Notes under the pieces: model-generated
The model's input: only the letters and a program-made list of their open reading frames with translations
The model's database searches: none
Told to the model about the DNA's origin: nothing
Shown: one piece after another, positions 24,246-52,549 of the stretch
Numbering within the stretch: the stretch's first letter is position 1
Layout of the letters: each line of letters starts with the position of its first letter
Assembly: GCA_030695565.1 (NCBI GenBank)
Contig: JAUYRZ010000112.1
Coordinates: 1,112-65,111, forward strand
Reading direction: 5' to 3'
DNA: 64,000 bases
Source: Archangium sp.
GTDB taxonomy: Bacteria > Myxococcota > Myxococcia > Myxococcales > Myxococcaceae
Made by a program: the position numbers and the translations under genes

Positions 24246-24272
24246 ATAGCCGCGGCACCGCTGAGGCGTGAC
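24246..24272 (-). promoter_or_regulatory. Near-consensus second-ECF-type promoter (GTCACG-N16-GCTAT, one mismatch) 7 nt upstream of the TRASH lipoprotein ATG
   Basis: Minus strand reads GTCAC gcctcagcggtgccgcg GCTAT cagcggc ATG. It differs from the six exact sites only at the first base of the -10-like box. Confidence 0.35.
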
Positions 24273-24331
24273 TCACTTTCGGGGCTTACTCGGAACATGG
24301 CGGAACTCGTCGGAAGGGGTGATGCCCCCAA

Positions 24332-24357
24332 GACGCAGCGCCGCAGGGCCGCTTACA
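24332..24357 (-). promoter_or_regulatory. CorE-type ECF promoter candidate (TGTAAG-N16-CGTC) for the TRASH-cytochrome c-cupredoxin operon
   Basis: Minus strand reads cggTGTAAGcggccctgcggcgctgCGTCttgg. One of five sites sharing the same boxes and an identical 16-nt spacer. Confidence 0.55.
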
Positions 24358-24366
24358 CCGAAGTGT

Positions 24367-24963
24367 TCAGGCGCAGCCCCCGCCGGGCTGACCGCAGGTG
24401 CAGTCGAGACAGCCGTGACTCGCGCACGTGCCGCAACTCCGCTCGAGGCGCTGCTTGAGCGCCTGGCGAGCGCGGTGCAGCCGAACCGTTGCGTTGTTCG
24501 GGGTAATCGACAGAGAAGACGCCACCTCCGACAACGGGGTCTCCTGAAGATCGACCCTGACGATCATCTCGGCGTACTCAGGCTTCAACGTTGGCAGCAG
24601 GCGGGTCATGCAGGCGCACACGGCGTCTTTGAGCTCGAGCTCGAAACCTTCGAAAGTTTCCCGGGCATGGGCCTCGACGGCGCGGGCCTCGGTGGCGCCT
24701 CGGCGGTAGTGGTCGATCAGCGCGTTGCGCAGCAGCCGGTAGAACCAGGCCACCGCACTCTCATCGGCCTCGATGGTGGCGCTCTTCTCGACCGCGCGAA
24801 CGAACGCCGTCTGCAGCAGCTCCTCGGCGACCGCGCGGCTCGAGACGCGGGCCTCGAGAAACGACAGAAACTGGCGGTGATTGGAGACCAGCCGCTCGAC
24901 CACACCTTCCGTCATCGGCAGGAGCGCATCGTTCGTGGTTGCCATGAGCGAGTTGAGTAGCAC
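24367..24963 (-). CDS. corE: CorE-like ECF sigma factor with C-terminal Cys-rich domain
   Basis: Sigma-70 region 2 (AWFYRLLRNALIDHYRR) and region 4 (LSEVASSLSITPNNATVRLHRARQALK). A CxC (AVCAC) sits in the linker. The C-terminal tail CGTCASHGCLDCTCGQPGGGCA has 7 Cys. No adjacent anti-sigma gene. The gene lies inside a copper locus, as described for Myxococcus xanthus CorE. Confidence 0.75.
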   Translation of the reverse strand: MLLNSLMATTNDALLPMTEGVVERLVSNHRQFLSFLEARVSSRAVAEELLQTAFVRAVEKSATIEADESAVAWFYRLLRNALIDHYRRGATEARAVEAHARETFEGFELELKDAVCACMTRLLPTLKPEYAEMIVRVDLQETPLSEVASSLSITPNNATVRLHRARQALKQRLERSCGTCASHGCLDCTCGQPGGGCA

Positions 24964-24967
24964 GGGC

Positions 24968-25606
24968 TCACCCCTTGATCGAGGTGAGGAGGCTCACGCC
25001 ACCCTCAACGATGAACTGAAGGGACATCGCGCCGAGCACCAGCCCCAGGACGCGCTGAACCGCCGCCATCACCGAGGGGCCGACAGCGCCCGAAATCGCC
25101 GAAGCGCTGCGGAGCACCACGAAGGAGACGACGAAGGTGATCGCGACCGCGACGAGGACGGCACAGACCTGGCTCGGGCCCGTCGCGCGCGACATCAGCA
25201 TCATCACCGCGGCCATCGCCCCGGGACCGGAGAGCAGCGGAATCGCCAGCGGCACCACGGCGATGTCGTCTTTCGCCTTCGCATCGTCGAGCTCTTCCTT
25301 GCTGCAACGGCAGGCCGCCTGCTTCGCCCTGAGCATGTCGAGCGCGGTGAGGAGCAGCAGGAGCCCGCCCGCCATCCGGAAGGCGTCGATGCTGATCCCG
25401 AGCAGGTCCAGGAGGAACCTGCCTCCGATGGCGAAGAGAAAAAGGACCGCGGCGCCCACCACGCTGGCTCGGAGTGCGATGCGCCGCATCTCTGCTGCCG
25501 TGCGCCCGGCCGTCATCGACGCAAAGGCGGGCACCACGCCCAGGGGCTCGACGATGACGAAGATCGTCGAGAGGGCCGCTACGAAGAAGCTCCAGGTTTC
25601 ACTCAT
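24968..25606 (-). CDS. MarC-family (UPF0056) integral membrane protein
   Basis: 212 aa, 6 TM segments, N-terminal FVIVEPLGVVPAF motif typical of the MarC family. It lies 4 nt upstream of the sigma gene. Confidence 0.75.
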   Translation of the reverse strand: MSETWSFFVAALSTIFVIVEPLGVVPAFASMTAGRTAAEMRRIALRASVVGAAVLFLFAIGGRFLLDLLGISIDAFRMAGGLLLLLTALDMLRAKQAACRCSKEELDDAKAKDDIAVVPLAIPLLSGPGAMAAVMMLMSRATGPSQVCAVLVAVAITFVVSFVVLRSASAISGAVGPSVMAAVQRVLGLVLGAMSLQFIVEGGVSLLTSIKG

Positions 25607-25640
25607 GTCTCGTCTCCCGATGGTGTCGAACGGACACGCT

Positions 25641-25666
25641 GACGGGGGGCGAGCTGGAGCCTTACA
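25641..25666 (-). promoter_or_regulatory. CorE-type ECF promoter candidate (TGTAAG-N16-CGTC) upstream of marC-corE
   Basis: Minus strand reads cgcTGTAAGgctccagctcgcccccCGTCagcg. It lies about 35 nt upstream of the marC ATG, the position expected for autoregulation of the sigma gene. Confidence 0.55.
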
Positions 25667-25690
25667 GCGCGAGGGCGCCGCTTCCTGGGG

Positions 25691-26974
25691 TCAGCTCTGT
25701 CTCTCGGGATCGATGCCGTCGGCAGTCAGCCGCTCCTGAGAGGCGGGCTCGGCCACCGTGCCCTTCGGATGCTGGTACCAGCCCGTGCCGTCTTCCTGGT
25801 CGGGGCGCGCGCGCACCTTGAGCACCGTGAACATGCCGCCCATGTCGATGGACGCGAACGGCCCCTTGCCGCCCATCATGGGGATCGAGTTCGTCGGCAT
25901 CTTCATTTCCATCTGGGACATGGCGCCCATGCCGTCGTGGCCCATCGTCATGTAGCTGGGCACCAGCGCTTGAACGCGACGGTCGATTCGACGTGCGTCT
26001 GCGCCGATCATCACGGGGAAGCCGTGGCCCATCTGGTTCATCACGTGGTGGGTCATGTGGCAGTGCATCGCCCAGTCGCCAGCCTCTCTGGGAACGAACT
26101 CGAACACGCGAACAGCGCCCACCGGCACGAGGAAGGTGGTCTCGGGGTGGCGAGCCGACTGCGGCACTTCGCCTCCGTCAGTCCAGGTCAGCTCGGCGCT
26201 GAGGCCGTGGAGATGAATCGGGTGGTGATCCATCGGCGAGAGGTTCCCGATGCGGATCCGCACGCGCTCTCCGACCCCCATCACCAACGGTGCGGTCGCC
26301 GGAAATGCCTTCGAGTTGAAGGTGAGGACGTTGAAGTCCTGCATTGCGTTCGGGTCAGGCCGGGCCGCGCCCGGGTGAATGAGCCACTCGTGCGCCATCA
26401 AGGCGAAGTCGCGATCGACGCGGGGCCCGCGGGGCACTTTGGGGTGCACCACGATCATCCCGTTCATGCCCAGGGCCATCTGGGTCATCTCGTCGAAGTG
26501 CGGGTGGTACATGAACGTGCCCGCGTCTTTGAACGTGAACTCGTAGAGGAACGTCTCCCCCGGCTCGATCGGCTTCTGGGTGAGGCCCGAGACACCATCC
26601 ATCCCGTTGGGAAGAATGACGCCGTGCCAGTGCATCGTGGTCGCTTCGGGAAGGCGGTTCGTGACGTAGAGCCGCACCCGATCGCCCTGCGTCACTTCGA
26701 TGGTCGGGCCCGGCGTCGAGCCGTTGTACCCCCACGCTTTGATCTTCAACCCTGGCGCGAGCTCATGATCGAACTCGTGAGCCACCAGTTGGCCCACCTT
26801 GACTCCGCCTACCAACTTGAGGGGAAGCGTCGAGCCGTTGGGGGTGATCACTCCCTTTTGGCCACCGGGAGCCACCACCACTGAAGGCGCCGCAACGGTC
26901 TTGGCGAACACATCCTTCGCTCCCAACGCACCGCCTGCGACCATGCCCAGCTGCAACAATTCACGACGGTTCAT
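25691..26974 (-). CDS. Tat-exported three-domain multicopper oxidase with Met-rich region
   Basis: ATG at 26974 gives a Tat-like signal, MNRRELLQLGMVAGGALGA. Copper ligand motifs HWHG, YHPH, HPIHLHG, HCHMTHH. Met-rich segment MTMGHDGMGAMSQMEMKMP...MMGG. Confidence 0.85.
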   Translation of the reverse strand: MNRRELLQLGMVAGGALGAKDVFAKTVAAPSVVVAPGGQKGVITPNGSTLPLKLVGGVKVGQLVAHEFDHELAPGLKIKAWGYNGSTPGPTIEVTQGDRVRLYVTNRLPEATTMHWHGVILPNGMDGVSGLTQKPIEPGETFLYEFTFKDAGTFMYHPHFDEMTQMALGMNGMIVVHPKVPRGPRVDRDFALMAHEWLIHPGAARPDPNAMQDFNVLTFNSKAFPATAPLVMGVGERVRIRIGNLSPMDHHPIHLHGLSAELTWTDGGEVPQSARHPETTFLVPVGAVRVFEFVPREAGDWAMHCHMTHHVMNQMGHGFPVMIGADARRIDRRVQALVPSYMTMGHDGMGAMSQMEMKMPTNSIPMMGGKGPFASIDMGGMFTVLKVRARPDQEDGTGWYQHPKGTVAEPASQERLTADGIDPERQS

Positions 26975-26975
26975 T

Positions 26976-28376
26976 TCAATGTCCTCCTGAAGAGTCGACA
27001 GCCATGGAGTTGCTGCCTGGCACTGCGCCCAGCACCAGCGGGGTCGAGCGACCGGCAAGCAGCAGCTCCAGAGCCGCACGTGCCTTCCACGCATCGAGCG
27101 TCGCGTCGACCTGCGAGATGGCCGCCTCCGTCACTTCGCGCTGCGCGGAGAGCACCTGAAACACGCCCACCTGCATGGCGTTGTACTGCAGCACCGTCTG
27201 CTCCAACTGTTGTTGGCGGGCGGGTACCAGGCGCTCTGCGTAGTGGCGCGCGCGGCGGCCTGCCGACTCCACCCGGTTGAGCGTCATGCGTACGGCGGAG
27301 CGCACCTGCAGCGCTTGCCCTTCTGCCCGCGCCCTGAGCCCGTCGTACTCGCTGCGCGCCGACAACTGCCGTCCCTGAGCGCGATCGAAGATGGGCAAAC
27401 CAACGGTGACGTGGCCGCCGAGCTCCCAGAGGTTCGCGTCGCGTTCACCGTGAAAGCCCGCGGAGAGGTGCGGTAGCCAGGCTTCGGTCTTCGCCATGCC
27501 GACCTTGCGGCTCGCCGCTTCGGCGCGGCTGAACAGCTCTGCGAGCTCCAGACTGGCCTCGATGGCCTTCGCTTCGACCGCGTCGCCGGTGGGGACCTCT
27601 TTGGGCACCGGCAACTGATCCGCGAAGGTCCACCGGGTGCGCGAGCCGGTGAGGCCCAACTTTCGGGTGAGGGCTTCGCGCCCATCGAGCAGCGCGTTCT
27701 CTGCCTCGGCGACTTGAACGCGCGACAGCTCGACTGCCGCCAGCTCATTTGCCAGTGCAAGCGCAGGCAGGTTTCCGACCCGGGAGAGCTCGAGCGCCGT
27801 CTCGTAGGAGGCCTGCTGCGAGGCGAAGGCCCGCAGTCGCAGGTCGAGCTTCTGCTGGAGCGCTTGCGCCTCGTAATAGGCAACGCGAGTCGACCAGGTG
27901 AGGTCGAGCAGGGCGCCCGCTGCTTTCCAGCGCTCCGCATCGAGCGCGGCCGAGGCAACCCCCGCGCGCAGCGGCGCAAGGAAGGTCGCGGTGAGGTTGA
28001 GCTCGAGACCAATGTCGATCTGAATCGGTTGTTGGTCCCCACCGGGGTCTCTCAGCTCGAACTCCACTTCGGGGTTGGGCACGAGGCCCGCCTGCATGAA
28101 CTGACCGCGGGCGATGCCGATCTCCGCAAGCGAGGCTCTGGCCTCACGGTTGTTGATCAGCGCCAGGCGCACTGCTGCATCGGCGGTGAGCGGCTGCTCG
28201 AGAAGTCGGTCGACCTCTTCGGGTACTGCCTCGGGGGTCTCGAGGCGAGGAAGGTCGAACTCAGCGACGGCGGCCCTTGCGGTGACCGTGCGACGAATCG
28301 AGGCCAGGTCTTCGTTCAGGCCAGTGGTGGCGCAGCCCGCCGCCAGGAGCGCAATGAGGATCGTGGGCTTCATCAT
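26976..28376 (-). CDS. TolC-family outer-membrane efflux lipoprotein (orphan OMF)
   Basis: ATG at 28376/28373. Lipobox LLAAGC. Two OEP-type helical repeat halves. No RND or MFP gene in the same operon. Confidence 0.8.
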   Translation of the reverse strand: MMKPTILIALLAAGCATTGLNEDLASIRRTVTARAAVAEFDLPRLETPEAVPEEVDRLLEQPLTADAAVRLALINNREARASLAEIGIARGQFMQAGLVPNPEVEFELRDPGGDQQPIQIDIGLELNLTATFLAPLRAGVASAALDAERWKAAGALLDLTWSTRVAYYEAQALQQKLDLRLRAFASQQASYETALELSRVGNLPALALANELAAVELSRVQVAEAENALLDGREALTRKLGLTGSRTRWTFADQLPVPKEVPTGDAVEAKAIEASLELAELFSRAEAASRKVGMAKTEAWLPHLSAGFHGERDANLWELGGHVTVGLPIFDRAQGRQLSARSEYDGLRARAEGQALQVRSAVRMTLNRVESAGRRARHYAERLVPARQQQLEQTVLQYNAMQVGVFQVLSAQREVTEAAISQVDATLDAWKARAALELLLAGRSTPLVLGAVPGSNSMAVDSSGGH

Positions 28377-28855
28377 TTCGCCCCCGGGTTCTGGCTGAGG
28401 AAGCTGCGCCGACAAGAGGACGAGCAGAACCAGTACTGCGTTCCGTTGACCTTCAGGGTGCCGCCCTTCGCGGTCTTCGGGTCGATCTTCATCTTGCACA
28501 CGGGGTCGGTCACCATGGCCTCTGGCGCTGCTGCGGGCTGCTGCGTCGCTGAACCGCCATGCTGATGATGCTGATGACCCTCGTCCTTCTTCTGCTCGGG
28601 TTGGGGCGCGGGAGCAGGTTCTGGCATCGGCGCTCCGCCATGCTGATGCCCTCCTTCGGTGGTGACCTCGGCGCACGGTGAGCCTGATGCGGTCGGCAGC
28701 CCGCAGTTCGGCGCAGCCAGCGGGTCTTCGGGCGCCAGGGTGCTGGCGACCGCGAGGCGCACGGTTTCCGGCTCGGGGGCAGCCCGAGTCTGGTGAGCAG
28801 AGGGACCTGCGCAAGCGGCAAGAAGCAGGAGAGAAAGAGGGACTCGAGGTGACAT
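28373..28855 (-). CDS. His-rich YHS-domain lipoprotein
   Basis: ATG at 28855. Lipobox LLLAAC. His-rich stretches GGHQHGG and EGHQHHQHGG. C-terminal YHS motif DPVCKMKIDPKTA...YWFCSSSC. Confidence 0.75.
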   Translation of the reverse strand: MSPRVPLSLLLLAACAGPSAHQTRAAPEPETVRLAVASTLAPEDPLAAPNCGLPTASGSPCAEVTTEGGHQHGGAPMPEPAPAPQPEQKKDEGHQHHQHGGSATQQPAAAPEAMVTDPVCKMKIDPKTAKGGTLKVNGTQYWFCSSSCRRSFLSQNPGAK

Positions 28856-28902: not shown

Positions 28903-28903
28903 C

Positions 28904-28930
28904 GTAGGCCACAGGTGCTTTTTCGTGACA
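28904..28930 (-). promoter_or_regulatory. Second-ECF-type promoter candidate (TGTCACG-N16-CCTAC), immediately upstream of the CorE-type box
   Basis: Minus strand reads acgTGTCACgaaaaagcacctgtggCCTACg. Its -10-like box ends 1 nt before the TGTCAT box. Confidence 0.5.
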
Positions 28931-30165: not shown

Positions 30166-30381
30166 TCAGGCCGCCCGCGACTCGTAGCCTGCATCGCGCA
30201 GCGCGCTCACGAGGCTGACGATCTTCACCCCCGCGACGTGCTTCACCACCACCTTGCCTTCGCGCAGCTTCACCTCGACCTGATCGACTCCGTCCACGTC
30301 TTTGAGGGCGGTGCTGATGTGGTGAATGCAGCTGGGGCAAGTCATGCCGTCGACGCTCAACAGGGTATCCGTGGTGTCCAT
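30166..30381 (-). CDS. copZ: CopZ-like heavy-metal-associated (HMA) metallochaperone
   Basis: 71 aa from the ATG at 30381. GMTCPSC metal-binding motif. AGGAG ribosome-binding site. The stop lies 2 nt before the oxidoreductase start. Confidence 0.85.
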   Translation of the reverse strand: MDTTDTLLSVDGMTCPSCIHHISTALKDVDGVDQVEVKLREGKVVVKHVAGVKIVSLVSALRDAGYESRAA

Positions 30382-30431
30382 GTGCTTCTCCTGGTGTGAC
30401 GCGCGGACGAAGTGTTCGCGGTCGAGAAGGA

Positions 30432-30457
30432 GACGCCTTCGGTTTTTGGGCATTACA
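30432..30457 (-). promoter_or_regulatory. CorE-type ECF promoter candidate (TGTAAT-N16-CGTC) for copZ-oxidoreductase
   Basis: Minus strand reads aggTGTAATgcccaaaaaccgaaggCGTCtcct. Confidence 0.55.
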
Positions 30458-30490
30458 CCTCGCCCCGAAAGTGACGGTCGCGCAGTCACC

Positions 30491-30516
30491 TGTAATGCCG
30501 CGCAGCGAGCCGCGTC
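30491..30516 (+). promoter_or_regulatory. CorE-type ECF promoter candidate (TGTAAT-N16-CGTC) for copA
   Basis: Plus strand reads caccTGTAATgccgcgcagcgagccgCGTCcccc, 22 nt upstream of the copA ATG with CAGGAGGG in between. Confidence 0.55.
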
Positions 30517-30537
30517 CCCCGCTTCAGGAGGGACACC

Positions 30538-41531: not shown

Positions 41532-41532
41532 T

Positions 41533-43700: not shown

Positions 43701-43728
43701 GGTCACGGCTTTGACCGCTCGCGCCTAT
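43701..43728 (+). promoter_or_regulatory. Second-ECF-type promoter candidate (GGTCACG-N17-CCTAT) directly upstream of its presumed sigma gene
   Basis: cccGGTCACggctttgaccgctcgcgCCTATcccggagcacacATG. The box ends 12 nt before the ATG at 43741. Confidence 0.55.
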
Positions 43729-43740: not shown

Positions 43741-44265
43741 ATGGCTCAGGGATCAGAATTGGACCTGCTGATGGGCCGGCTGGCCGATGGGGATCGCCAT
43801 GCCTTTTCCCCCCTGTTCAAGGCGCTCTGGTCACCCGCGCTCCGAGTGTGCAGCCGGATGATGGAACGAGAAGCGGACGCGGCCGATGCCGCCCAGGCGG
43901 CCATGATGAAGATCCTCGAGCGCGCTGCCGAATACGACAAGAAGCGCCCCGCCTTGCCCTGGGCGCTGGGGATCGCTGCGTGGGAGTGCAAGACCCTGCT
44001 CAAGCGGCAGCAACGCCACAAAGAGAGCTCGGCCGAGGTTTCGCTCAGCGACGGAGGGGCGGCCACAGAGGAAGTCGAGCAGCGCCTCCTGGTCGAAGCG
44101 GCGATGCACGCGATGGGCACGCTGTCAGAGGCGGACCAACAGACGCTGGTTTCGACCTACTGGGAGACCGCTTCTGCTGAAAAGGGAGCGACGTTCCGCA
44201 AGCGGAGAGAGAGGGCCCTGACCCGGCTGCGCGATACCTTCAGGAGGATTTATGGACTCGATTGA
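43741..44265 (+). CDS. ECF (sigma-70 family group 4) sigma factor
   Basis: 174 aa from the ATG at 43741. Region 2 (DAADAAQAAMMKILERA...) and region 4 (LSEADQQTLVSTYW...TFRKRRERALTRLR). Confidence 0.8.
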   Translation: MAQGSELDLLMGRLADGDRHAFSPLFKALWSPALRVCSRMMEREADAADAAQAAMMKILERAAEYDKKRPALPWALGIAAWECKTLLKRQQRHKESSAEVSLSDGGAATEEVEQRLLVEAAMHAMGTLSEADQQTLVSTYWETASAEKGATFRKRRERALTRLRDTFRRIYGLD

Positions 44266-44797
44266 CCTCGACGGCTTGGAGCGAAAGGCCCGCCTCCGCT
44301 ACGAGTTGGTGCGCGCCGGCCGGAGCCTGCTGGCCTTTGCGCCCGCGCTTCTTCTGGTCGGGGTCGCCGCGGCACTGGGGCGCAGACCGAGCTCTGCGAT
44401 CTTCTTCGGCACGCTGCTCTTCCTCTCCGGGGCCTTCTTGCTTTGGCGCGGTCGCACCGTGCATCGGGCGGTGCTGCCAGGGCTCTTGGCTGGAATGATC
44501 CCCCTCGCGTGCGCACTGATGGCCAATCGAGGCCACGCCTGCTCGGGAGGACATTGCTCCACCTGGTGCCTGCCGGCCTGCATCACCGGCGGCATCGTCG
44601 CTGGCCTGGTGGTGTCGTGGATCGCTACGCGGCGCGGCCTGGACTGGCGCTTCTGGGCTGGCGCCTCCGCCATCTCGCTCCTCACGGGCGCGATGGGGTG
44701 CTCGTGCATCGGCTACTCGGGGGTCATCGGTCTTGGGGCCGGCTTCATCGGAGGTGCGCTCCCGCTGATCGTCCGCCGGCTCTTTACCCGCGCGTGA
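44252..44797 (+). CDS. Cys/His-rich 6-TM membrane protein, candidate non-canonical anti-sigma/sensor
   Basis: Overlaps the sigma gene by 14 nt and has CAGGAGGA upstream. Six predicted TM helices, only about 24 cytoplasmic N-terminal residues, and 7 Cys in total. These form the cluster C-x9-C-x4-C-x3-C-x3-C (PLACALMANRGHACSGGHCSTWCLPAC) plus GCSC. Confidence 0.6.
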   Translation: MDSIDLDGLERKARLRYELVRAGRSLLAFAPALLLVGVAAALGRRPSSAIFFGTLLFLSGAFLLWRGRTVHRAVLPGLLAGMIPLACALMANRGHACSGGHCSTWCLPACITGGIVAGLVVSWIATRRGLDWRFWAGASAISLLTGAMGCSCIGYSGVIGLGAGFIGGALPLIVRRLFTRA

Positions 44798-44805: not shown

Positions 44806-47800
44806 TCAGTGCGATGCGCTGGCTTCCTTCACGACGGGGGAGAGTTGGCCAACGCGAAGCTGCCGACGCCGCCACAGCGTGTACGCGGCGGGTAACACGA
44901 GCAACGTGAGCAGCATGCACGACCACAACCCACCCACCACCGGCGCGGCCGTGCGGGCCGAGATGTCGGCGCCCACGCCGCTTTCCCAGAGAAGGGGCAT
45001 CAAGCCGAGCACGGTGGTGGCCACCGTCATGAGCAACGGCCGCAGTCGCTGCGAGGCACCCTCGATCACCGCCGCGTCCACGTCTTCGGGCCTCAGCAGG
45101 CGCCCCTCGCTGCGATACCGCTCGAAGGATAGATCGAGGTAGACGATCATCACGATGCCGGTCTCGGCGGCGACGCCGGCGACGGCGATGAGCCCGACCC
45201 ACACCGCGGTGGACAGGTTGTAGGACATGGCGGCGAGCAGCCACACGCTGCCCGCCAGCGCGAACGGGAGACTGAGCAGCACCAGCGCCGTCTGCTGCCA
45301 GCCCCTCAACGAGAGGTAGAGCAGGACGATCACCAGCGCGAGCGTGAGCGGGAGGACGACGCGCATCCGCGCTTCCATCTGGGCCATGAACTCGTACTGG
45401 CCCGTCCATTGGAGCCGGTAGCCGGAGGGAAGGGTGAGGCGGCTGGCCACCAGCGCCTTCGCGTCTTTGACCCAGCCACCCAGGTCGCGCTTCGACGAGT
45501 CGATGTCCGCAAAGACGTAGCCGACCAGCACGCCGTTCTCGTCCTTGATCATCGGAGGGCCTGTCACCACGCGTACGTCGGCGAGGGTCCCCAGCGGTAC
45601 GGCTGCTCCGGGTTGACGCCATCGCTCGGCCGCGTCGGTCAATCCACCCGCCATTCCAGGAACGGCAGCGGGCGCGCCCATACCGCCTGCCGACCTGTCC
45701 GCAGCACCACCTCCCATTGCGCCCATGTTGGTGGCCCCGCTTCCTCCCGCCGCGCTCGAGGGCGGCATTGCAGACACGCCCGCGCCACCGCTGGTCTCGA
45801 GGCTCAGCGCTGACTCGCTGGTCTGCACCGGAATGAGGATCGTCCGCAGCGCCTCCGGGTCTGCGCGATAGCCGGCGCCGTAGCGCACGTTGACCGAGAA
45901 GCGCGAACGCCCAGCGATCACCGTCGAGACCGTCATGCCCCCGATGGCCGCCTCCACCACGTCGTTGACGTCACGAACGGTCAGCCCGTAGCGGGCGATC
46001 ACGTCGCGATCCGGCACGATGTCGATGTACTCGCGGCCGGTCTGCCGCTCCGCGAAGGTGCTCCTCGTGCCGGGCACGTCCCGCAGCATGCCCTCCAACT
46101 CGAGACTGACCCGCTCGATCTCTTGCAGGCTCTCGCCAAACACCTTGATGCCGACGGGCGTGCGCACCCCCGTGGTCAACATGTCGATGCGCGTGCGAAT
46201 GGGAGGCGCGATGGCCATCTGGAAGCCCGGCATCTGCAGGGCGGTGTCGAGATCACGCGAGAGCTCCGTGAGCGTTCGGCGCTTCTGCTCGGGCCAGAGC
46301 AGTCGCAGCGGCGGCTTGAGCCACTGAGGCCCACCACTGAACCAGCGCTCGCGCTCGAGCAGGGGCCATTGATCCTTCGGCTTGAGCGCGACCACTGTCT
46401 CGATCATGTCGAGCTGCGCTGGATCCGTCGGAGTCTCGGCGCGGCCCGCCTTGCCGTGCACCGAGGCTACCTCCTCGAAGCCCATGATGATTCGGTCCTG
46501 GGCGATCAACGCGCGCCTTGCTTCCTCGATGGAGATGCCGGGGAACGTGGTGGGCATGATCAACAGCGACCCCTCATCCAGCGGCGGCATGAACTCAGAG
46601 CCGAGCCGCAAGAAGAACGGCACCGTACCGGCCATGATCAGCGCCGCCGCCGCCACCACCCAGATCCGCCGCCGCACCACGAAGGTGACGATCGGCCGGT
46701 AGACCTTTCCCAACACTCTGTTGACGGGGTTCTCGGACTCCTTCCGAAAGCGCCCCTTGAGCAGAAGCACCATCAGAGGTGGCGCGAGCGTGATGGAGAG
46801 GATCGCCGCGGCGAACATCGCGAAGGTCTTCGTGTACGCCAGCGGGCGGAAGAGGCGGCCCGCCTGCCCCGCGAGCGTGAAGATGGGCAGGAAGCTGACG
46901 GTGATCAGCAGCAGCGAGAAGAAGATGGGCCGGCCCACCTCCTTGCAGGAGTCGATGATCACCCGCGCCCGATCTTCGCCGGGCTTCATGGCTGCGAGCC
47001 GCACGTGCGCGTTCTCGATCAGCACGATGGCCGCATCGGACAGCTCGCCCACCGCGATGGCGATGCCGCCCAGCGACATGATGTTCGAGGAGAGCCCCAG
47101 GTAGCGAATTGCGATGAACGAGAGCAGCACCGAGACCGGCAGGATGATCATCGCGATCAGCGCCGAGCGCGCGTGGAACAGGAAGATGAGCGAGATGAGC
47201 GCGACGATGAAGCCCTGCTGCAGGAGTGTCTTGGTCAGGGTGTTCACCGAGCCGACGATCAGCTCGGAGCGATCGTAGGTCGCGATCAGCTCGACCCCCT
47301 CAGGCAACCCGAGCTCGGCGACCTGCGCCTCGACGCCCTTGATGACCTCGAGGGCGTTCGAGCCGATGCGCATCACCACGATGCCTCCGACGGTCTCGCC
47401 CTTCGCGTTCCAGTCGGCTGCGCCGCGGCGAAGCTCGGGTCCAAACTGCAGCCGGGCGACGTCGCGCACGCGGATCGGCGTGCCCCCCGGGCCGAGCGAG
47501 ACCACGCTCTTCTCCAGGTCCTCCAGGGTCTTCACGTAGCCGCGCCCCCGCAGCACGTACTCGCGGCCTGCGAGCTCGAGCACCCGGGCTCCAACCTCTG
47601 AGTTGGAGTCACGCACTGCGCGCGTGACGTCGCCGAGCGTCAGGCCGTACGCGGTGAGCCGCGAGGGATCGAGGATGATCTGAAACTGGCGCTCGAAGCC
47701 TCCGAGCGACGCGACCTCGGCCACGCCGGGCACAGCCTGGAGCGCAGGGCGAACAGTAAAGTCTTGCAGCTCGCGCAGTTGCGCCAGGTCGAGCTTCCCC

Positions 47801-48243
47801 GAGGTGTCCTGGAGAACGTACTGGTACACCCAGCCGATGCCGCTCGCGTCGGGCCCGAGGATGGGCGTGGCGTCAACGGGGAGCGACGCTTGCACGCGGC
47901 CAAGCTGCTCCAGCACCCGCGTGCGCGCCCAGTAGATATCGGTGCCGTCTTCGAAGATGGCGTAGACGAAGCTCATGCCGAACATCGAGTAGCCGCGCAC
48001 GGTGAGCGCTTTGGGAGTGCTCTGGAGAGCGCGCACCAGGGGGTAGGTGATCTGATCTTCGACCAGGTCGGGGCTGCGTCCCATCCACTCGGTGAAGACG
48101 ATCACCTGCGGATCCGAGAGATCGGGGAGCGCGTCGAGTGGCGTCTTGCGGATCGAATCGATCGCCCAGCCGACGAGCAGCAGTGCGATGGCGAAGACCG
48201 CCAGACGGTGTTTGGCCGACCACTCGATGACGCGCTCGACCAT
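44806..48243 (-). CDS. cusA: CusA-family (HME-RND) heavy-metal efflux pump with a Met/Gly-rich periplasmic insertion
   Basis: CusA-like N-terminus (DALPDLSDPQVIVFTEWMGRSP...FGMSFVYAIFEDGTDIYWARTRVLEQL). 12 TM segments. 1145 aa, about 70 aa of it absent from the paralog at 55186..58464. Confidence 0.88.
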   Translation of the reverse strand: MVERVIEWSAKHRLAVFAIALLLVGWAIDSIRKTPLDALPDLSDPQVIVFTEWMGRSPDLVEDQITYPLVRALQSTPKALTVRGYSMFGMSFVYAIFEDGTDIYWARTRVLEQLGRVQASLPVDATPILGPDASGIGWVYQYVLQDTSGKLDLAQLRELQDFTVRPALQAVPGVAEVASLGGFERQFQIILDPSRLTAYGLTLGDVTRAVRDSNSEVGARVLELAGREYVLRGRGYVKTLEDLEKSVVSLGPGGTPIRVRDVARLQFGPELRRGAADWNAKGETVGGIVVMRIGSNALEVIKGVEAQVAELGLPEGVELIATYDRSELIVGSVNTLTKTLLQQGFIVALISLIFLFHARSALIAMIILPVSVLLSFIAIRYLGLSSNIMSLGGIAIAVGELSDAAIVLIENAHVRLAAMKPGEDRARVIIDSCKEVGRPIFFSLLLITVSFLPIFTLAGQAGRLFRPLAYTKTFAMFAAAILSITLAPPLMVLLLKGRFRKESENPVNRVLGKVYRPIVTFVVRRRIWVVAAAALIMAGTVPFFLRLGSEFMPPLDEGSLLIMPTTFPGISIEEARRALIAQDRIIMGFEEVASVHGKAGRAETPTDPAQLDMIETVVALKPKDQWPLLERERWFSGGPQWLKPPLRLLWPEQKRRTLTELSRDLDTALQMPGFQMAIAPPIRTRIDMLTTGVRTPVGIKVFGESLQEIERVSLELEGMLRDVPGTRSTFAERQTGREYIDIVPDRDVIARYGLTVRDVNDVVEAAIGGMTVSTVIAGRSRFSVNVRYGAGYRADPEALRTILIPVQTSESALSLETSGGAGVSAMPPSSAAGGSGATNMGAMGGGAADRSAGGMGAPAAVPGMAGGLTDAAERWRQPGAAVPLGTLADVRVVTGPPMIKDENGVLVGYVFADIDSSKRDLGGWVKDAKALVASRLTLPSGYRLQWTGQYEFMAQMEARMRVVLPLTLALVIVLLYLSLRGWQQTALVLLSLPFALAGSVWLLAAMSYNLSTAVWVGLIAVAGVAAETGIVMIVYLDLSFERYRSEGRLLRPEDVDAAVIEGASQRLRPLLMTVATTVLGLMPLLWESGVGADISARTAAPVVGGLWSCMLLTLLVLPAAYTLWRRRQLRVGQLSPVVKEASASH

Positions 48244-48246
48244 GGC

Positions 48247-49518
48247 CTACTCCCCGTGTCCCTGGTGGGGATTGGGCGCGGTGACCCCTGCATCAGCTGC
48301 GTCTTGAGTGGGCACTGCGGGCCTGGCCCCGCCACCGTGTCCAGAGTGACCTGTGCCTCCGCTCGACGCGCGCAGCCGGCTCTCTGAGTCGATGAGGAAG
48401 ACGCCGGAGGCCACCACCTGCTCGCCGCCCTCCAGCCCCTCGAGGATCTCCACGCGATCCGTGAGGCGGGCTCCGAGCCGAACGATGCGCGGCTCGAACT
48501 GCCCTTCGCCGGTCATCACGAAGACGTGCTGTTGGGCCCCGGTGTCCACTACCGCGTCCCGCGAGACCGTGAGCCGCTGCTGGGGATCGAGCTGAAAGTC
48601 TGCCGTCCCATAGAGGCCTGGTCGCAGCGAGCCGTCGGGGTTGGGCACCGAGAAGCGAACGCGCAGGGTGCGGGTCCGGTCGGTGAGGGTCGGGTAGATG
48701 AACTCGACCTTCGCGTCGATCGGCTGCCGGCCCGACGCGGAGAACTCCAACCGCGCCGAAGAGCCCGGGCGGATCGCGCTCGCGTCACTCTCAGCGACTT
48801 CGGCGAGTACCCAGACCTGGCTGAGATCGGCGACGGTGACGATCTCGGTCGAGGGATCCACCGCGGTTCCCACCGCCACGCCCCGGCGGAGAACGATGCC
48901 GGTGCGGGGGGCGACCAGCGTCACCAATCGTTGGGGCGTGCCTCGCCGCTCCAGCGCCTGGATCTGGGCTTCCGACATGCCCAGGACGATCAGCCTCGTC
49001 CTGGCGCTGGCACCGACGAGGCTCGCAGGGCCGGCCTGCGCGGCCTTCAGGGCCGAGAGGTACTCCACCTGCGAGGCGAACAGCTCTTGCGAGAAGATGC
49101 CCGCGAGCGGCGCGCCTGCCTTGACGCTCTGCCCGGTGGTGTTGACGAAGAGCTTCTCCAGCCAGCCGGAGACCCGGGTGTGCACGTGCGAGACGCGCGA
49201 CTCGTCGGGGACCACCGTCGCCACTGCGCGCACGGCGCTGTTGACGACACCCACCGTGGCTTGCTCCACCCTGATGTCGAACGACGCGAGCCTCGAGGGC
49301 TCGAGCTGCACGGGCGCACGCTTCGCGGTCCCGGGTACGGACGCATCGGGAGCGCTGCGCTTCGCTTCGATGCCGCCGACGCCGACCCCGTGGTGCAGCG
49401 AGAACGGCCAGCCGTGCCGGAAGTGCTGAATGACGAAGAACCCGCTGACCAGGACGACCGCGATCACCGCCGGGGCCGCGCGTCGAAGGAAGGTCTTGAG
49501 CCGCTCAGTGCGCGCCAT
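48247..49518 (-). CDS. cusB: RND periplasmic adaptor (CusB-like) with His-rich C-terminal tail
   Basis: ATG at 49518. TM anchor and HlyD/MFP barrel-sandwich pattern. Tail GGTGHSGHGG...HQGHGE. Confidence 0.8.
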   Translation of the reverse strand: MARTERLKTFLRRAAPAVIAVVLVSGFFVIQHFRHGWPFSLHHGVGVGGIEAKRSAPDASVPGTAKRAPVQLEPSRLASFDIRVEQATVGVVNSAVRAVATVVPDESRVSHVHTRVSGWLEKLFVNTTGQSVKAGAPLAGIFSQELFASQVEYLSALKAAQAGPASLVGASARTRLIVLGMSEAQIQALERRGTPQRLVTLVAPRTGIVLRRGVAVGTAVDPSTEIVTVADLSQVWVLAEVAESDASAIRPGSSARLEFSASGRQPIDAKVEFIYPTLTDRTRTLRVRFSVPNPDGSLRPGLYGTADFQLDPQQRLTVSRDAVVDTGAQQHVFVMTGEGQFEPRIVRLGARLTDRVEILEGLEGGEQVVASGVFLIDSESRLRASSGGTGHSGHGGGARPAVPTQDAADAGVTAPNPHQGHGE

Positions 49519-50776
49519 GGAACATTCCTTCCAGATCGCCGGTCGCCCGACCGAGCCGAGCCCAGGCTGCGCCCAGTGAGACCTCTGCTCCGAGCAGCTC
49601 TGCTTGCGTGGCCCAAAGTGTGCGCGCTGCATCGAGCACTGACACCAGGGGCAGCTGGCCCGAGGAATACCCCGCGAGCGAGGGCTCGATCGCCTGCCTG
49701 GCCCGCGGCATCACGTCGTCATGAAGTGAGGTGAACTGCACGCGCGCCGCGACCACCTCTTCGCGCGCCGAAGCGGCCTGACCTTCCGTCATCCGCTGCA
49801 TCGCCTCGAGGTCGGCCTTCGCCATCCGCGCCATCGCCTCGGCTTCGGAGACGCCCGCGCCCAGCTTTTCGCGCCACAGGGGGATGCTGACGCCCACCAT
49901 CAGCATCGCGCCGAAGCCGTCGGTCATGGTGTACGCGGGGCCCGTTCGCACCATGGCCATGGGGAAGTACATCGACTTCATCACGTCGACCTCTGCCTCA
50001 GCGCGAGCGATCTCTGACTTCCCGGCGCTCAGCTCGGGCCGCCCCGCAAGCGCAGCGTTCACGGTAGCTGCGCCATCAGGTGGACCGCTGACGCCCGACG
50101 AGAGACTGAGCTCGGGTATCGGCAGACCGGTGGCGCGCCCGAGGCTCGCGTTCAACATCGCCTCGGAGGCCTTGATCTGCGCCGCCATGGTCTTGAGACC
50201 CGCTTCGATGCGAGCGACCTCGATCTCTGCGCGAATGACGTCGGCCTGCGCCCCCGTCGCGCTGCCGTAGCGGGCGTTGGTGGCGCTGACGAATTGCTTC
50301 GCGAGCAGTCGCTGCTCCTCGAGGATCCGGAGCATTCCACGCCGCTCATAGAGCATGAGAAAGGCAGTCACCGCGTCGAGCTGAACGTCGAGCTTGGTGC
50401 GCTGCTCGTCTGAGCGCAGCCGCTTGGCTTCGGCCTCGGCCACTCGCCGTCGGTCACCGCGGATGCCCGAGAGCGGAAAACGCTGCTCGATGGTGAGGCT
50501 CACGTCGGCCGCAGCCATGCCGAAAGGCCAGTGATCGACCGAGGGCGAGATCATCGGGTCATCGAGCGCGGAGACGATGGCGGGTCGCTGCTCTGCGGCG
50601 AGCGCGCGCTCCCGGGCCGCGGTCACCTCAGCTCGTCGCTCCCGCGCCAGCGCGGGCACGTCTTCGAAACGGAGTGGGCTGGGGAGCTCGGCTGAAGGCT
50701 GGGCTCCTGCCAGCCCGGCGAAGGAGCCGAGCACGAGGGCGGTGAGTCTCAATGTGGAAATGCGAATGACGCACAC
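49505..50776 (-). CDS. cusC: TolC-family outer-membrane factor (CusC-like)
   Basis: GTG at 50776 lies 5 nt after GGAGG. Signal peptide RISTLRLTALVLGSFAGLAGA. Two OEP repeats. Overlaps the cusB start by 14 nt. Confidence 0.8.
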   Translation of the reverse strand: MCVIRISTLRLTALVLGSFAGLAGAQPSAELPSPLRFEDVPALARERRAEVTAARERALAAEQRPAIVSALDDPMISPSVDHWPFGMAAADVSLTIEQRFPLSGIRGDRRRVAEAEAKRLRSDEQRTKLDVQLDAVTAFLMLYERRGMLRILEEQRLLAKQFVSATNARYGSATGAQADVIRAEIEVARIEAGLKTMAAQIKASEAMLNASLGRATGLPIPELSLSSGVSGPPDGAATVNAALAGRPELSAGKSEIARAEAEVDVMKSMYFPMAMVRTGPAYTMTDGFGAMLMVGVSIPLWREKLGAGVSEAEAMARMAKADLEAMQRMTEGQAASAREEVVAARVQFTSLHDDVMPRARQAIEPSLAGYSSGQLPLVSVLDAARTLWATQAELLGAEVSLGAAWARLGRATGDLEGMFHGAH

Positions 50777-50814: not shown

Positions 50815-50841
50815 ATAGGCGCGCGAGCCCGGCACCGTGAC
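50815..50841 (-). promoter_or_regulatory. Second-ECF-type promoter candidate (AGTCACG-N17-CCTAT) for cusCBA-1
   Basis: Minus strand reads ccaAGTCACggtgccgggctcgcgcgCCTATcgac, 38 nt upstream of the GTG at 50776. Confidence 0.5.
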
Positions 50842-51015
50842 TTGGTCGGTGTGCACGTTTGCGGCCGTTGAGTTCGCCCGGGACGTGGCGCAACCGCCGC
50901 AACAAACAGACTGCCGAGCGCACCAGTCGGCGCACACTTTGCGCTGGCTCTCGCGGCGCCCTCTTCGGCCGCATGAGTTGAACTCCTGCGCTTGCCAGCG
51001 AGCCGCAGATGCCGC

Positions 51016-51042
51016 GTCACGCCCGCCGGAACCCACGCCTAT
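51016..51042 (+). promoter_or_regulatory. Second-ECF-type promoter candidate (CGTCACG-N17-CCTAT) for mini-ORF/GMC oxidoreductase
   Basis: ccgCGTCACgcccgccggaacccacgCCTATcgc, 41 nt upstream of the mini-ORF ATG. Confidence 0.5.
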
Positions 51043-51083
51043 CGCAGCAGCCCTTTGTCGCGGGGCGCGAGGAGGTGTTCGAC

Positions 51084-51122
51084 ATGAAGAAGAAGCTCAA
51101 GATTCGTCACTGCGGCATCTGA
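51084..51122 (+). CDS. Candidate 12-codon leader ORF (MKKKLKIRHCGI)
   Basis: GAGGAGG lies 8-9 nt upstream of the ATG. The stretch is locally AT-richer than its surroundings. The ORF is followed by a hairpin and a T-rich tract before the GMC gene. It is too short to judge by codon bias. Confidence 0.2.
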   Translation: MKKKLKIRHCGI

Positions 51123-51137
51123 CCGGTTTCGTTTTCT

Positions 51138-51170
51138 CGGCGGCTGGGTGAACTCAGCCGCCGTTCTTTC
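51138..51170 (+). terminator. Leader hairpin CGGCGGCTG-N8-CAGCCGCCG followed by TTCTTTC
   Basis: Perfect 9-bp GC-rich stem with a T-rich tail, between the mini-ORF and the GMC start (51192). Possible attenuator. Confidence 0.3.
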
Positions 51171-51191
51171 TCCTCCTCATCAGGATGCTCT

Positions 51192-52514
51192 ATGCGCTTC
51201 GAGTCTCTCGTCGTCGGCGGTGGTCTGTGTGGAACTCTTGCTGCGCAGCATCTGGCCGAGGCGGGCCGCTCCGTCTTGCTGCTGGAAGCGGGCCCCACGG
51301 CGAAGCGCGCGCTTCCCATTGACGTCGCCGGCTTTCAGCGCATCACCCGCCCGCTCACCAAGCTCGACGCGCAGCGGTGGGCCTTCGCAGGGCCCAAAGG
51401 CTACGACTGGCATCGAGTGCGCGCGCTGGGCGGCCGTACGCTGCTCTGGGGCGGGTGGATGATGCGCCCCACCGCCGACTACTTTCGAGCGCGCAAGGAG
51501 CTGAACGCGGCCTGGCCCGTGGAGCTCGAGAAGCTCGGTCATTGGCTCAAGCTCGCGGAGCGCCGACTCGAGGTGAAGAAGGGTACCCGCGGCGTTCTCC
51601 ATCGCCGGCTCGCTCAGCTGGGACTGAACACGCTGGTCAAACATGAGGCGGTGAAGCCCGGCAGCCGCAGGATGCTCACCGCGCTCGACCTGCGCCCCCA
51701 ACACGTGCGCGAGGCGGCGGTGCTGTCCTTCGAGACAGGAGCCAAAGGCGTGGTGGTGCATCTCGAGGGCGGCCGTTCGATCGAGGGCCAGCGGCTCATC
51801 CTCGCCGCTTCACCGATCGAGACCGCTCGCATCGTCGCCGCCAGCTGTGGCAACGGAAGGCGTACGCGGATCAATTATGCAGACCATCTCATCGCGGGTG
51901 TCATCGGCATCACCGAGCGCCGGCCTGCAGCGGGCCATCCGCTCAACGGCGCTGATCCATCGGCGGTCATCGCTCCGGCCTCTGACGCCAATCATCGATT
52001 CACCACTGAAGTCCGGGGGCCCACTCCGCTGGAGCAGCTCGATCCCGATGACGTGAAGGCCCTTGGCTTCACTCCAGAGGAAGCCAGACAGCACTCGTTC
52101 TACGTGGTGTTCGCCATGGGAGAGACCGACCCCCGCGTGCCTCGCCAGTGCGTGCTCGACCCCACCTCGAAGGACGGCCTGGGCCGCCCGCAGCCGCGCT
52201 TCGTGAAGCGGCGCCACACGGACTGGGAGCGCTCCCTGGGCGAGGCGATGAACGGCACCTGCGTCCGCATCGGGGAGGCTCTGGTGGGAAAGCACGGCAA
52301 GTGGTTTCAGATCTACGACGCGCTCGAGTACGGCTCAGGCGGCCACGAGACTGGCACCTGCATGGACCAGGTGCTTCCGGACGGCGCCCTCCTCGGTTCG
52401 CCCGGAGTCTTCCTCGCCGATGGCTCAGGCGTTCCTGCCGCCACTGATCGCCACCCCAGCCTGACGCTGGCGGCCAATGCGCTGCGCGTTGCGGAGGCTG
52501 CCCTTCAGAAGTGA
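51192..52514 (+). CDS. GMC-family FAD-dependent oxidoreductase
   Basis: N-terminal FAD motif VVGGGLCGTLAAQHLAEAGRSVLLLEAG. C-terminal GMC-type region (GSGGHETGTCMD...FLADGSGVP). Confidence 0.7.
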   Translation: MRFESLVVGGGLCGTLAAQHLAEAGRSVLLLEAGPTAKRALPIDVAGFQRITRPLTKLDAQRWAFAGPKGYDWHRVRALGGRTLLWGGWMMRPTADYFRARKELNAAWPVELEKLGHWLKLAERRLEVKKGTRGVLHRRLAQLGLNTLVKHEAVKPGSRRMLTALDLRPQHVREAAVLSFETGAKGVVVHLEGGRSIEGQRLILAASPIETARIVAASCGNGRRTRINYADHLIAGVIGITERRPAAGHPLNGADPSAVIAPASDANHRFTTEVRGPTPLEQLDPDDVKALGFTPEEARQHSFYVVFAMGETDPRVPRQCVLDPTSKDGLGRPQPRFVKRRHTDWERSLGEAMNGTCVRIGEALVGKHGKWFQIYDALEYGSGGHETGTCMDQVLPDGALLGSPGVFLADGSGVPAATDRHPSLTLAANALRVAEAALQK

Positions 52515-52521
52515 CAGGGCG

Positions 52522-52549
52522 TGTCACGGCGCAGAGGCCCCGCGCCTAG
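52522..52549 (+). promoter_or_regulatory. Second-ECF-type promoter candidate (TGTCACG-N17-CCTAG) for cusCBA-2
   Basis: gcgTGTCACggcgcagaggccccgcgCCTAGcacagctggATG. The box ends 9 nt before the ATG at 52559. Confidence 0.45.

Follow-up and report, generated by a model that had tools for sequence, protein, structure and literature searches.

The locus and its six motif copies

We analyzed a 64-kb stretch of Archangium sp. DNA (hereafter the window; G+C content 66%) in which a metal island extends from ~22.6 to 58.5 kb, flanked by the formate-tetrahydrofolate ligase and nuo genes and by a T2SSE ATPase gene. The island contains two sets of cusCBA genes and three multicopper oxidases, a P1B ATPase accompanied by an HMA chaperone, lipoproteins of the YHS and TRASH types, a MarC protein, a number of peptidoglycan hydrolases and two sigma factor genes; Pfam and NCBIfam gave no family for the lipoproteins. 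Our subject is a bipartite DNA motif made up of the boxes GTCACG and GCCTA, which recurs in the island, together with the second of the sigma factor genes, sigma-2 (43741–44265, + strand). This gene encodes a divergent sigma factor of the extracytoplasmic function (ECF) type, 174 residues long, in which the sigma2 domain is normal and the sigma4 domain shortened. The gene that follows it (44252–44797, + strand), which we call the partner gene, overlaps the sigma-2 stop codon by 14 nt and encodes a six-helix membrane protein of 181 residues. In our view the boxes very probably serve as the cognate promoters of sigma-2.

A search of the window for GTCACG-N15-17-CCTA returned six exact matches; in 100 dinucleotide shuffles the average was 0.12 and the highest count 2. 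No matches were gained when the final G of the first box was left out, and a scan with a position weight matrix (PWM) derived from 130 orthologous sites placed the same six sites at the top, at 18.6–26.1 bits. All six are intergenic and oriented toward a gene once gene starts are corrected. The original prediction had proposed just this, namely six exact copies that lie between genes, point at the genes downstream and recur beyond chance, and in these respects it has been borne out.

Site 1, or P1, lies on the minus strand at 28905–28930 (exact match 28929–28905); it reads TGTCACGA-N11-TGGCCTA, with a spacer one base short, and is followed by a 49-nt leader to the YHS lipoprotein gene. P2 (37905–37931, + strand; exact match 37906–37931) reads TGTCACGC-N12-GCGCCTA, has the top PWM score of 26.1 bits and ends 7 nt before the ATG at 37939. 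The third site, P-sig (43701–43727, + strand; exact match 43702–43727), reads GGTCACGG-N12-GCGCCTA and stands 13 nt from the sigma-2 ATG as a putative autoregulatory promoter. P4 is on the minus strand (50816–50842; exact match 50841–50816), reads AGTCACGG-N12-GCGCCTA and precedes a 39-nt leader with a GGAGGG ribosome-binding site and a GTG start codon at 50776. On the plus strand, P5 (51015–51041; exact match 51016–51041) reads CGTCACGC-N12-CACGCCTA and leads, via a 42-nt leader with a GAGGAGG ribosome-binding site, to a mini-open reading frame (mini-ORF), and P6 (52522–52548; exact match 52523–52548) reads TGTCACGG-N12-GCGCCTA and would be near-leaderless, with 10 nt to the ATG at 52559.

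Could these copies have arisen by chance in a GC-rich genome, or be what is left of a repeat element or of duplicated DNA? The boxes are short, and a base-composition estimate gives ~1.5 single-mismatch copies per window, which would favor such an origin. Against it stand not only the count of exact copies relative to the shuffled sequences, but also the fact that the six resemble one another in the two boxes alone, with no relation between their spacers or flanks, so that they are not duplicated DNA. Moreover, the motif is more than 10-fold above matched controls in 80 genomes. For the six exact copies we regard this explanation as already refuted, its probability being negligible.

The same explanation is likely for a seventh copy with one mismatch, which had been proposed to precede the TRASH lipoprotein gene (23846–24238). 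This copy (24247–24273, - strand) reads AGTCACGC-N12-GCGGCTA and ends 8 nt before the ATG at 24238. It comes next after the six in the PWM scan, at 13.8 bits, which is inside the shuffled-sequence range. Its GGCTA variant has one copy in the 1.24 Mb of orthologous loci described below, compared with 132 exact cores, and just two of 14 loci with TRASH orthologs have the exact motif. These three results rule the seventh site out as a reliable promoter, and it is probably a product of chance, or at best weak. Relaxed patterns and the PWM, applied to the whole window, revealed no further sites upstream of the flanking housekeeping genes, the divergent HMA chaperone/P1B ATPase pair (30166–32814) or the PKD/fn3/three-domain oxidase operon (40116–43487), the last two having no copy even when the PWM threshold was lowered. 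Another regulator must control part of the island. The PKD/fn3/three-domain oxidase operon is divergent from the sigma-2 gene.

Motif anatomy and distance to start codons

The comparison set consisted of 80 loci with sigma-2 relatives of 46–98% identity, 1.24 Mb in all, drawn from Archangium, Myxococcaceae, Polyangiaceae, Sorangium, Sandaracinus, Haliangiales and a few metagenome-assembled genomes (MAGs) labelled otherwise. From 130 distinct aligned sites we obtained the consensus T-GTCACG-C-N12-(G)(C)-GCCTA, with the core GTCACG-N15-GCCTA. Positions outside the search pattern are kept as well: G precedes CCTA in 128 of the 130 sites, T precedes GTCACG in 83 and C follows it in 96. Since that G is kept and the base following CCTA is free, the -10 box that had been written CCTAY is better written GCCTA. 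The core is rigid, with 132 exact copies in the orthologous loci and no single-base variant present in more than four. Spacer length is equally constrained: 15 nt in 132 copies, 14 nt in eight and any other length in none or one, so that site 1 carries the 14-nt form, a minority but an enriched one. Within the spacer no position is conserved across the 130 sites. The two boxes are unrelated to each other, forming neither a dyad nor a direct repeat, and the motif is the same where sigma identity is as low as 47% (Sorangium).

ECF promoters normally initiate transcription ~6–8 nt downstream of the -10 box. When the orthologous loci are measured from CCTA to the first ORF-opening start codon, the distances form a sharp peak at 7–8 nt (36/143). 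Among 37 identifiable non-sigma targets, defined as ORFs downstream of the motif that can be matched to a homologous non-sigma protein of the island, the start codon falls 6–8 nt past the box in 26; by class, this spacing holds for 10 of 11 CusC-1-like genes, five of six CusC-2-like genes and all eight partner paralogs. The sigma gene itself usually begins 13–17 nt from the box. Taken together with the usual ECF start distance, a spacing of 6–8 nt would make transcription begin exactly where the start codon begins. If transcription starts 7–8 nt after the A of GCCTA, the boxes would lie at about -33/-28 and -12/-8, a normal ECF geometry.

In the window, on these considerations, the lipoprotein operon at 37939 (7 nt) would be transcribed without a leader, and the leaders of cusC-2 (10 nt) and of the sigma-2 gene (13 nt) would be no more than a few bases long. 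The YHS gene (49 nt), cusC-1 (39 nt) and the mini-ORF (42 nt) would have leaders of ordinary length that include ribosome-binding sites. The P2 ortholog in locus L002 has an identical 7-nt geometry, and the orthologous cusC genes in L003, L006 and L008 begin 7 nt from the box, compared with 10 nt at P6. The earlier proposal that some transcripts are leaderless or near-leaderless thus gains comparative support from the 37 targets. Measured from CCTA, the distances for the four genes that it named are 7, 8, 10 and 13 nt for the starts at 37939, 24238, 52559 and 43741, respectively. The many targets whose start codon coincides with the predicted transcription start would be suited to the study of leaderless translation as it occurs naturally in a Gram-negative bacterium.

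The anatomy of the motif also bears on two other ways of reading it. Metal-resistance operons are often under DNA-binding regulators, such as response regulators or metal sensors of the MerR/ArsR type, and the boxes might on that account be the operator of such a protein and not a promoter. However, an operator of this kind is hard to reconcile with boxes that form neither of the usual repeats, that keep one fixed spacing around a free spacer and a single orientation to the gene, and that in the majority of the identifiable non-sigma targets lie so close (6–8 nt) to the start codon that there is no room for a separate promoter. Nor is any regulator gene other than the sigma/partner pair conserved adjacent to the boxes. 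We reject the operator on these grounds as very improbable.

The second possibility is that TGTCACG is a variant -24 element of a sigma-54 promoter. The sigma-54 consensus is TGGCACG-N4-TTGCW, with GG at -24 and GC at -12, 10 nt apart. TGTCACG has one mismatch to the -24 consensus, and the spacer of site 3 (GCTTTGAC) loosely resembles a -12 box. Across the 130 sites, however, GT always stands in place of the essential GG, no box is conserved 4–5 nt further on, and the second box is 15 nt away; furthermore, a start codon 7 nt past the second box does not fit sigma-54 geometry. A sigma-54 promoter is scarcely credible on this evidence and was rejected.

Linkage of the motif to sigma-2 across genomes

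If the boxes are promoters of the ECF type, which sigma factor reads them? In the comparison set, GTCACG-N15-17-CCTA has 141 copies, compared with 1–12 for controls in which the pattern was reversed, permuted, swapped or mis-spaced. At least one copy is present in 77 of the 80 loci, and in 68 a copy on the same strand lies no more than 700 nt upstream of the sigma gene; 34 more copies are found just beyond the sigma/partner pair. The partner gene overlaps or follows sigma-2 in 76 of the 80 loci. In the closest ~25 loci the box pair stands directly upstream of the sigma gene amid surroundings that have diverged (the best public match of the window is an Archangium MAG, with a sigma-2 identity of 98%). 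Genes downstream of the motif include the sigma gene (29), genes for CusC-like factors (17) and partner paralogs (8), as well as genes for the FAD oxidoreductase, oxidases, a TRASH protein and a P1B ATPase, the CusC-like genes being the commonest non-sigma genes in this position in other genomes. The co-occurrence of the boxes with sigma-2 orthologs backs the original assignment of the boxes to the sigma factor at 43741, and the same-strand copies upstream of the sigma gene point to its autoregulation, which had likewise been suggested.

The obvious competitor is the other sigma factor of the island, sigma-1 (24367–24963, - strand), whose best NCBIfam match is SigZ-like, which has a Cys-rich tail (...CGTCASHGCLDCTCGQPGGGCA) of the CorE-like kind and which has no detectable similarity to sigma-2. 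Site 1 heads the operon that contains sigma-1, so that this sigma factor, were it the reader of the motif, would itself be autoregulated, and CorE of Myxococcus xanthus controls copper oxidase and ATPase genes (PMC3107203). Because both sigma genes lie downstream of a motif copy, the window alone cannot tell which of them is the reader, and it is the comparison across genomes that separates them. A CorE-like sigma gene occurs within 10 kb in only two of the 80 motif-bearing loci, whereas the partner gene of sigma-2 is there in 76 and the motif abuts the sigma-2/partner pair. Moreover, the published in-silico CorE motif is built on AAC in the -35 region (PMC3107203) and the boxes contain no AAC. 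We conclude that the motif belongs with sigma-2 and reject sigma-1 as its reader on co-occurrence; its chances are slim.

A scan of metagenome contigs that started from the motif, with a 15-base version of the consensus as query, returned 120 loci. Homologs of sigma-2 or its partner were found in 14 of these, every one of which has the motif upstream in the same orientation; some of these relatives, which lie beside P1B ATPases, are only 35–47% identical. Four metagenome contigs with 69–75% G+C (L149, L151, L155 and L192) have an exact motif 8–11 nt before the gene of a small secreted protein (MKLVRALLVGLAIF...). L149, L151 and L155 have distant sigma-2 relatives (35–41% identity) beside P1B ATPases; on L192 an ATPase and no sigma factor was detected. 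These contigs suggest that the sigma-2 family and its promoter may extend beyond the loci that we sampled.

Several loci of the comparison set have arrangements of their own around the sigma gene. In Sorangium and some Polyangiales (L068, L075 and L076 at ~9800–9990; L033 and L074) the motif is followed by a secreted peptide of 43–48 codons with a CPC-rich end (for example, MRRWLKVTLIAAVLGIPTAAYAGTQLASGCPCADCPCPDCPCG) and only after it by the sigma gene; other loci of Polyangiaceae have, in place of the peptide, a secreted protein of 138–142 residues. In L031, L034–L039 and L043–L045 there is a second conserved stretch, GGAGGTAACGTTCCGACTCCCGGGTTCATGACGG, ~40–60 nt upstream of the sigma gene and after the upstream secreted-protein gene. 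This stretch begins with GTAACG, which is similar to the -35 box, and is a possible internal promoter with another specificity. Two cultured strains, Myxococcus sp. CA023 (L025) and M. xanthus AM003 (L026), carry the sigma/partner pair at 57% identity (9756–13229), with one motif ~200 nt upstream of the sigma gene and a second in front of an outer-membrane-factor/RND operon that follows a TRASH lipoprotein gene; such strains would permit genetic tests of the system.

Sigma-2 and its membrane partner

To judge from profile matches and a predicted structure, sigma-2 is an ECF-type sigma factor with a shortened region 4, from a family found mainly in Myxococcota. Its one Pfam match is Sigma70_r2 (38.3 bits, cut-off 24), a domain matched by all 81 family members, and its AlphaFold2 model (pLDDT 83) has a confident sigma2 domain, which superposes on region 2 of sigmaE at 1.2–1.3 Å. 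The interdomain linker is ~10 residues long and regions 1.1 and 3 are absent. None of the 81 members has a Pfam sigma4 match at threshold, with weak matches in 10 (best E = 0.0026). In NCBIfam sigma-2 is below all cut-offs, scoring 39.2 against the cut-off of 42.9 for the generic ECF model TIGR02937, and no subgroup is above threshold.

A search of the PDB with Foldseek nevertheless places the whole protein among the ECF sigma factors, since its best matches are all of this class (sigmaE/RseA, SigW, SigK, sigmaL, AlgU and CnrH) and those to sigmaE, SigW and SigK are full length. The model has C-terminal helices at residues 107–125, 130–140 and 150–171, with a low-confidence loop between the last two, and the family profile can be aligned with the whole of SigK if gaps of 6 and 2 residues are admitted around the helix-turn-helix. 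Region 4 (residues ~134–174; 44140–44265, + strand) is ~8 residues shorter than that of SigK; the -35 box is nonetheless near-invariant. The recognition helix of sigma-2 is very basic (GATxRKRRERAL), and the protein ends directly after it, at ...FRRIYGLD, with no cysteines in this C-terminus.

The partner protein has an N-terminal helix with conserved R14, Y17, E18 and R21, followed by six predicted membrane helices. Its AlphaFold2 model (pTM 0.74) places helices at residues 4–28, 31–42, 46–66, 71–94, 106–127, 132–153 and 155–179. The invariant residues are H95, C97, C102, C106, P108, C110, C150 and C152, and by the positive-inside rule the His and Cys residues would face the periplasm, from the loop that joins helices 3 and 4 and from the helix ends next to it. 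No Pfam or NCBIfam family was found for the partner, every database source labels its homologs 'hypothetical', none of 73 homologs matches DUF1109/NrsF even at E ≤ 1, and a Foldseek search of the PDB with the model yielded no fold match (best E = 1.9). By analogy with ECF systems whose anti-sigma factors are membrane proteins, the partner is probably both an anti-sigma factor and a metal sensor.

In nine loci a copy of the partner gene, either a paralog or the sole copy, has an exact motif of its own 7–8 nt before its start codon (L005:10603, L007:12524, L010:6769, L015:11074, L016:11077, L017:11199, L018:6215, L019:12600 and L023:5937). At that distance the anti-sigma-like partner gene would itself be a leaderless target in many genomes, and paralogs transcribed from their own leaderless promoter would give negative feedback.

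A number of points weigh against the assignment of the boxes to sigma-2. It rests on co-occurrence, and in the window the CorE-like sigma-1 is also downstream of a motif copy. With region 4 below the Pfam threshold, the reading of the -35 box by sigma-2 is putative, and with a partner that resembles no known anti-sigma family, the anti-sigma role is one of analogy. The boxes lack the AAC (-35) and CGT (-10) hallmarks that are held to be general for ECF promoters of M. xanthus (PMC6061681; PMC3107203). Finally, ~100 of the 120 matches of the motif-first metagenome scan had no linked island gene and are probably due to chance, often on unrelated contigs of low GC content, so that the scan is informative solely for the subset with the sigma gene.

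The candidate target operons

P1 would drive a putative operon at 24367–28855 on the minus strand, whose co-transcription is suggested solely by tight or overlapping junctions. Its genes encode the YHS lipoprotein (28855–28373, with corrected start), an outer-membrane factor (28376–26976), a multicopper oxidase (26974–25691) and MarC (25606–24968), all four identified with Pfam, and then, as the fifth and last-but-one gene, the CorE-like sigma-1 (24963–24367). The position of sigma-1 in this operon raises the possibility that the island is wired as a cascade. Downstream of P2 is a putative operon at 37939–39980 (+ strand; Pfam, corrected gene starts) for a 146-residue lipoprotein (37939–38379), a two-domain multicopper oxidase (38376–39257) and a LysM-VanY peptidase (39315–39980). 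This peptidase is one of the peptidoglycan hydrolases of the island, others being of the VanY type (34249–34827, - strand) and an Amidase_2 protein with LysM and PG_binding_1 (36725–37765, + strand).

The efflux operon cusCBA-1 (44806–50776, - strand), downstream of P4, comprises the cusC-1 outer-membrane factor with its GTG start (50776–49505) and a membrane-fusion protein (49518–48247), both with Pfam matches, and a 1145-residue RND pump (48243–44806), which we named from its size, its operon position and tblastn matches to RND-sized genes in 35 related loci. Downstream of P6, cusCBA-2 (52559–58464, + strand) comprises the cusC-2 outer-membrane factor (52559–53896), a membrane-fusion protein with a heavy-metal-binding domain (53900–55189), both again identified with Pfam, and a 1092-residue RND pump (55186–58464) that was named from size and position.

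P5 precedes the mini-ORF (51084–51122, + strand; 12 codons, MKKKLKIRHCGI), which has a strong ribosome-binding site, and then a gene for a FAD/GMC-like oxidoreductase (51192–52514, + strand; Pfam, NCBIfam). The arrangement of P5 promoter and mini-ORF is also present in L003, L018, L019, L021 and L023. The mini-ORF fits the pattern MKKK[LI]K[IV]RHCG[INL]* and keeps its length and sequence in seven genomes, with synonymous or conservative changes (elsewhere it is found at L003:11214, L004:4001, L018:1909, L019:11129, L021:5530 and L023:4464), and it always lies between a motif promoter and the FAD/GMC-like oxidoreductase, the weak best NCBIfam matches of which are to mycofactocin MftG. The mini-ORF could encode a leader peptide, or a small Cys/His peptide that is a substrate of the oxidoreductase.

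A model of the regulon

How might these elements work together? In the mechanism that we propose, sigma-2 would be produced together with its six-helix membrane partner, whose His/Cys cluster is predicted to be periplasmic, and the partner would keep sigma-2 inactive until a metal modifies the cluster. The response to metal is suggested by gene content, and Cu(I) or Ag(I) are the most plausible signals because of what the regulon contains here and elsewhere, namely cus, oxidase, YHS/TRASH and P1B genes. Freed sigma-2 would then bring RNA polymerase to the six island promoters. Its own operon would be among the targets, giving feedback, along with both cusCBA efflux operons, the operon for the lipoprotein, two-domain oxidase and LysM peptidase, the mini-ORF with the FAD oxidoreductase, and the YHS-lipoprotein/outer-membrane-factor/multicopper-oxidase/MarC operon, through which the CorE-like sigma-1 might be brought into a cascade.

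A bolder version of this proposal, to which we give rather less than even credence, has sigma-2 representing an ECF-like family that has gone unclassified, its region 4 being shorter than the standard models can recognize. Such a family would have near-absolute specificity for an 11-base bipartite promoter without AAC or CGT, would be gated by a new six-helix Cu(I)/Ag(I) sensor with an invariant His-Cys6 set on its periplasmic face, and would drive a largely leaderless regulon that includes a CorE-type sigma factor and a 12-residue Cys/His peptide with a FAD oxidoreductase.

If our interpretation is correct, it would define the regulon of a widespread, unannotated myxobacterial regulator of copper/silver resistance, and provide a stringent sigma/promoter pair whose promoter has 11 near-invariant bases and is represented by six native examples that differ in leader type, orthogonal ECF sigma/promoter pairs being useful parts for synthetic biology. 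It would also mean that a sigma4 domain can read a -35 box despite a shortened helix-turn-helix, and that there is a new family of membrane metal sensors with no Pfam model and no solved relative. For myxobacterial copper regulation, in which the CorSR two-component system, CorE and CarQ are known, it would add a third route, in series with a CorE-like sigma factor.

Comparison with known systems

The closest functional analogue of sigma-2 and its partner is ECF16, represented by SigF-NrsF of Caulobacter crescentus and EcfF-OsrA of Bradyrhizobium. According to the supplement to ECF classification 2.0 (Casas-Pastor et al. 2021), this group is autoregulated, responds to heavy-metal or oxidative stress, has a co-transcribed six-helix anti-sigma factor with essential periplasm-facing cysteines, and recognizes a promoter of the form GTAACC...CGTA (bioRxiv 10.1101/2019.12.11.873521 supplement). 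The -35 sequence quoted there, GTAACC, resembles the GTCACG found here. The differences are nevertheless considerable: the partner described here is not DUF1109/NrsF (0/73 homologs), which excludes sigma-2 from ECF16, and it has one invariant His and six invariant Cys compared with two Cys; the -10 box is GCCTA and not CGTA; sigma4 is shortened; and the system belongs to Myxococcota instead of Alphaproteobacteria, with a regulon centred on cusCBA and copper oxidases.

A near-identical -35 box and similar spacing are found in ECF41, for which the same supplement gives the promoter TGTCACA-N16-CGTC (bioRxiv 10.1101/2019.12.11.873521 supplement). However, ECF41 proteins have a SnoaL-like C-terminal extension of ~100 residues and no anti-sigma factor, and their -10 box is CGTC and not GCCTA; the 174-residue sigma-2 has neither such an extension nor the corresponding Pfam match, and does not belong to this group. 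In the portions of the supplementary text and tables available, GTCAC motifs are quoted for ECF41, ECF103, ECF250 and ECF288, and the strings GTCACG and CCTA do not occur (bioRxiv 10.1101/2019.12.11.873521). The sigma-2 family might have its home in ECF210, a deltaproteobacterial group (Sorangium, Sandaracinus, Chondromyces) for which the supplement reports that no motif or regulator was found (bioRxiv 10.1101/2019.12.11.873521 supplement).

Among metal-responsive ECF sigma factors, CorE and CorE2 of M. xanthus (ECF44, now ECF238) control multicopper oxidase and P1B-ATPase genes (PMC3107203, PMC4937300), and they share with sigma-2 a myxobacterial host and this kind of gene setting. CorE-type sigma factors, however, have no anti-sigma factor and sense metal through their own Cys-rich C-terminus, whereas sigma-2 has no C-terminal Cys and has a membrane partner; the lack of a Cys-rich extension and the presence of the partner place it outside ECF238. 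The CnrH-CnrY-CnrX system of Cupriavidus metallidurans, in which the ECF sigma factor autoregulates its operon and activates an adjacent CBA-type efflux pump (PMC6851896; bioRxiv 10.1101/2019.12.11.873521 supplement), includes a structural neighbour of sigma-2, CnrH itself, according to Foldseek. Unlike the system described here, it is a relay of three proteins, with sensing assigned to a distinct periplasmic protein, CnrX, and with a single-pass anti-sigma factor; it responds to Ni/Co and has another promoter.

CarR of M. xanthus has six membrane helices. The CarQ-CarR system pairs an ECF sigma factor with this inner-membrane anti-sigma factor, which is thought to be directly inactivated by copper (PMC6851896); however, it controls carotenoid genes, and the partner described here has no detectable similarity in sequence to any annotated family. 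The described ECF promoters of M. xanthus share AAc/cGT motifs (PMC6061681), which the boxes lack.

A 2019 review of metal-responsive ECF sigma factors, which covers FecI, FpvI, PvdS, CnrH, CarQ, CorE and CorE2, includes no sigma/partner pair like this one (PMC6851896), and a literature search on the motif, on copper-responsive ECF sigma factors with a six-helix anti-sigma factor in myxobacteria and on Myxococcus leaderless-mRNA or transcription-start data found no description of the system. The family, the sensor and the promoter appear to be undescribed. The regulatory logic, by contrast, is familiar, being that of an autoregulated ECF sigma factor with a membrane partner presiding over a resistance island, and what sets the system apart from its counterparts is the rigidity of its promoter, the shortened region 4 of its sigma factor and its predicted leaderless targets.

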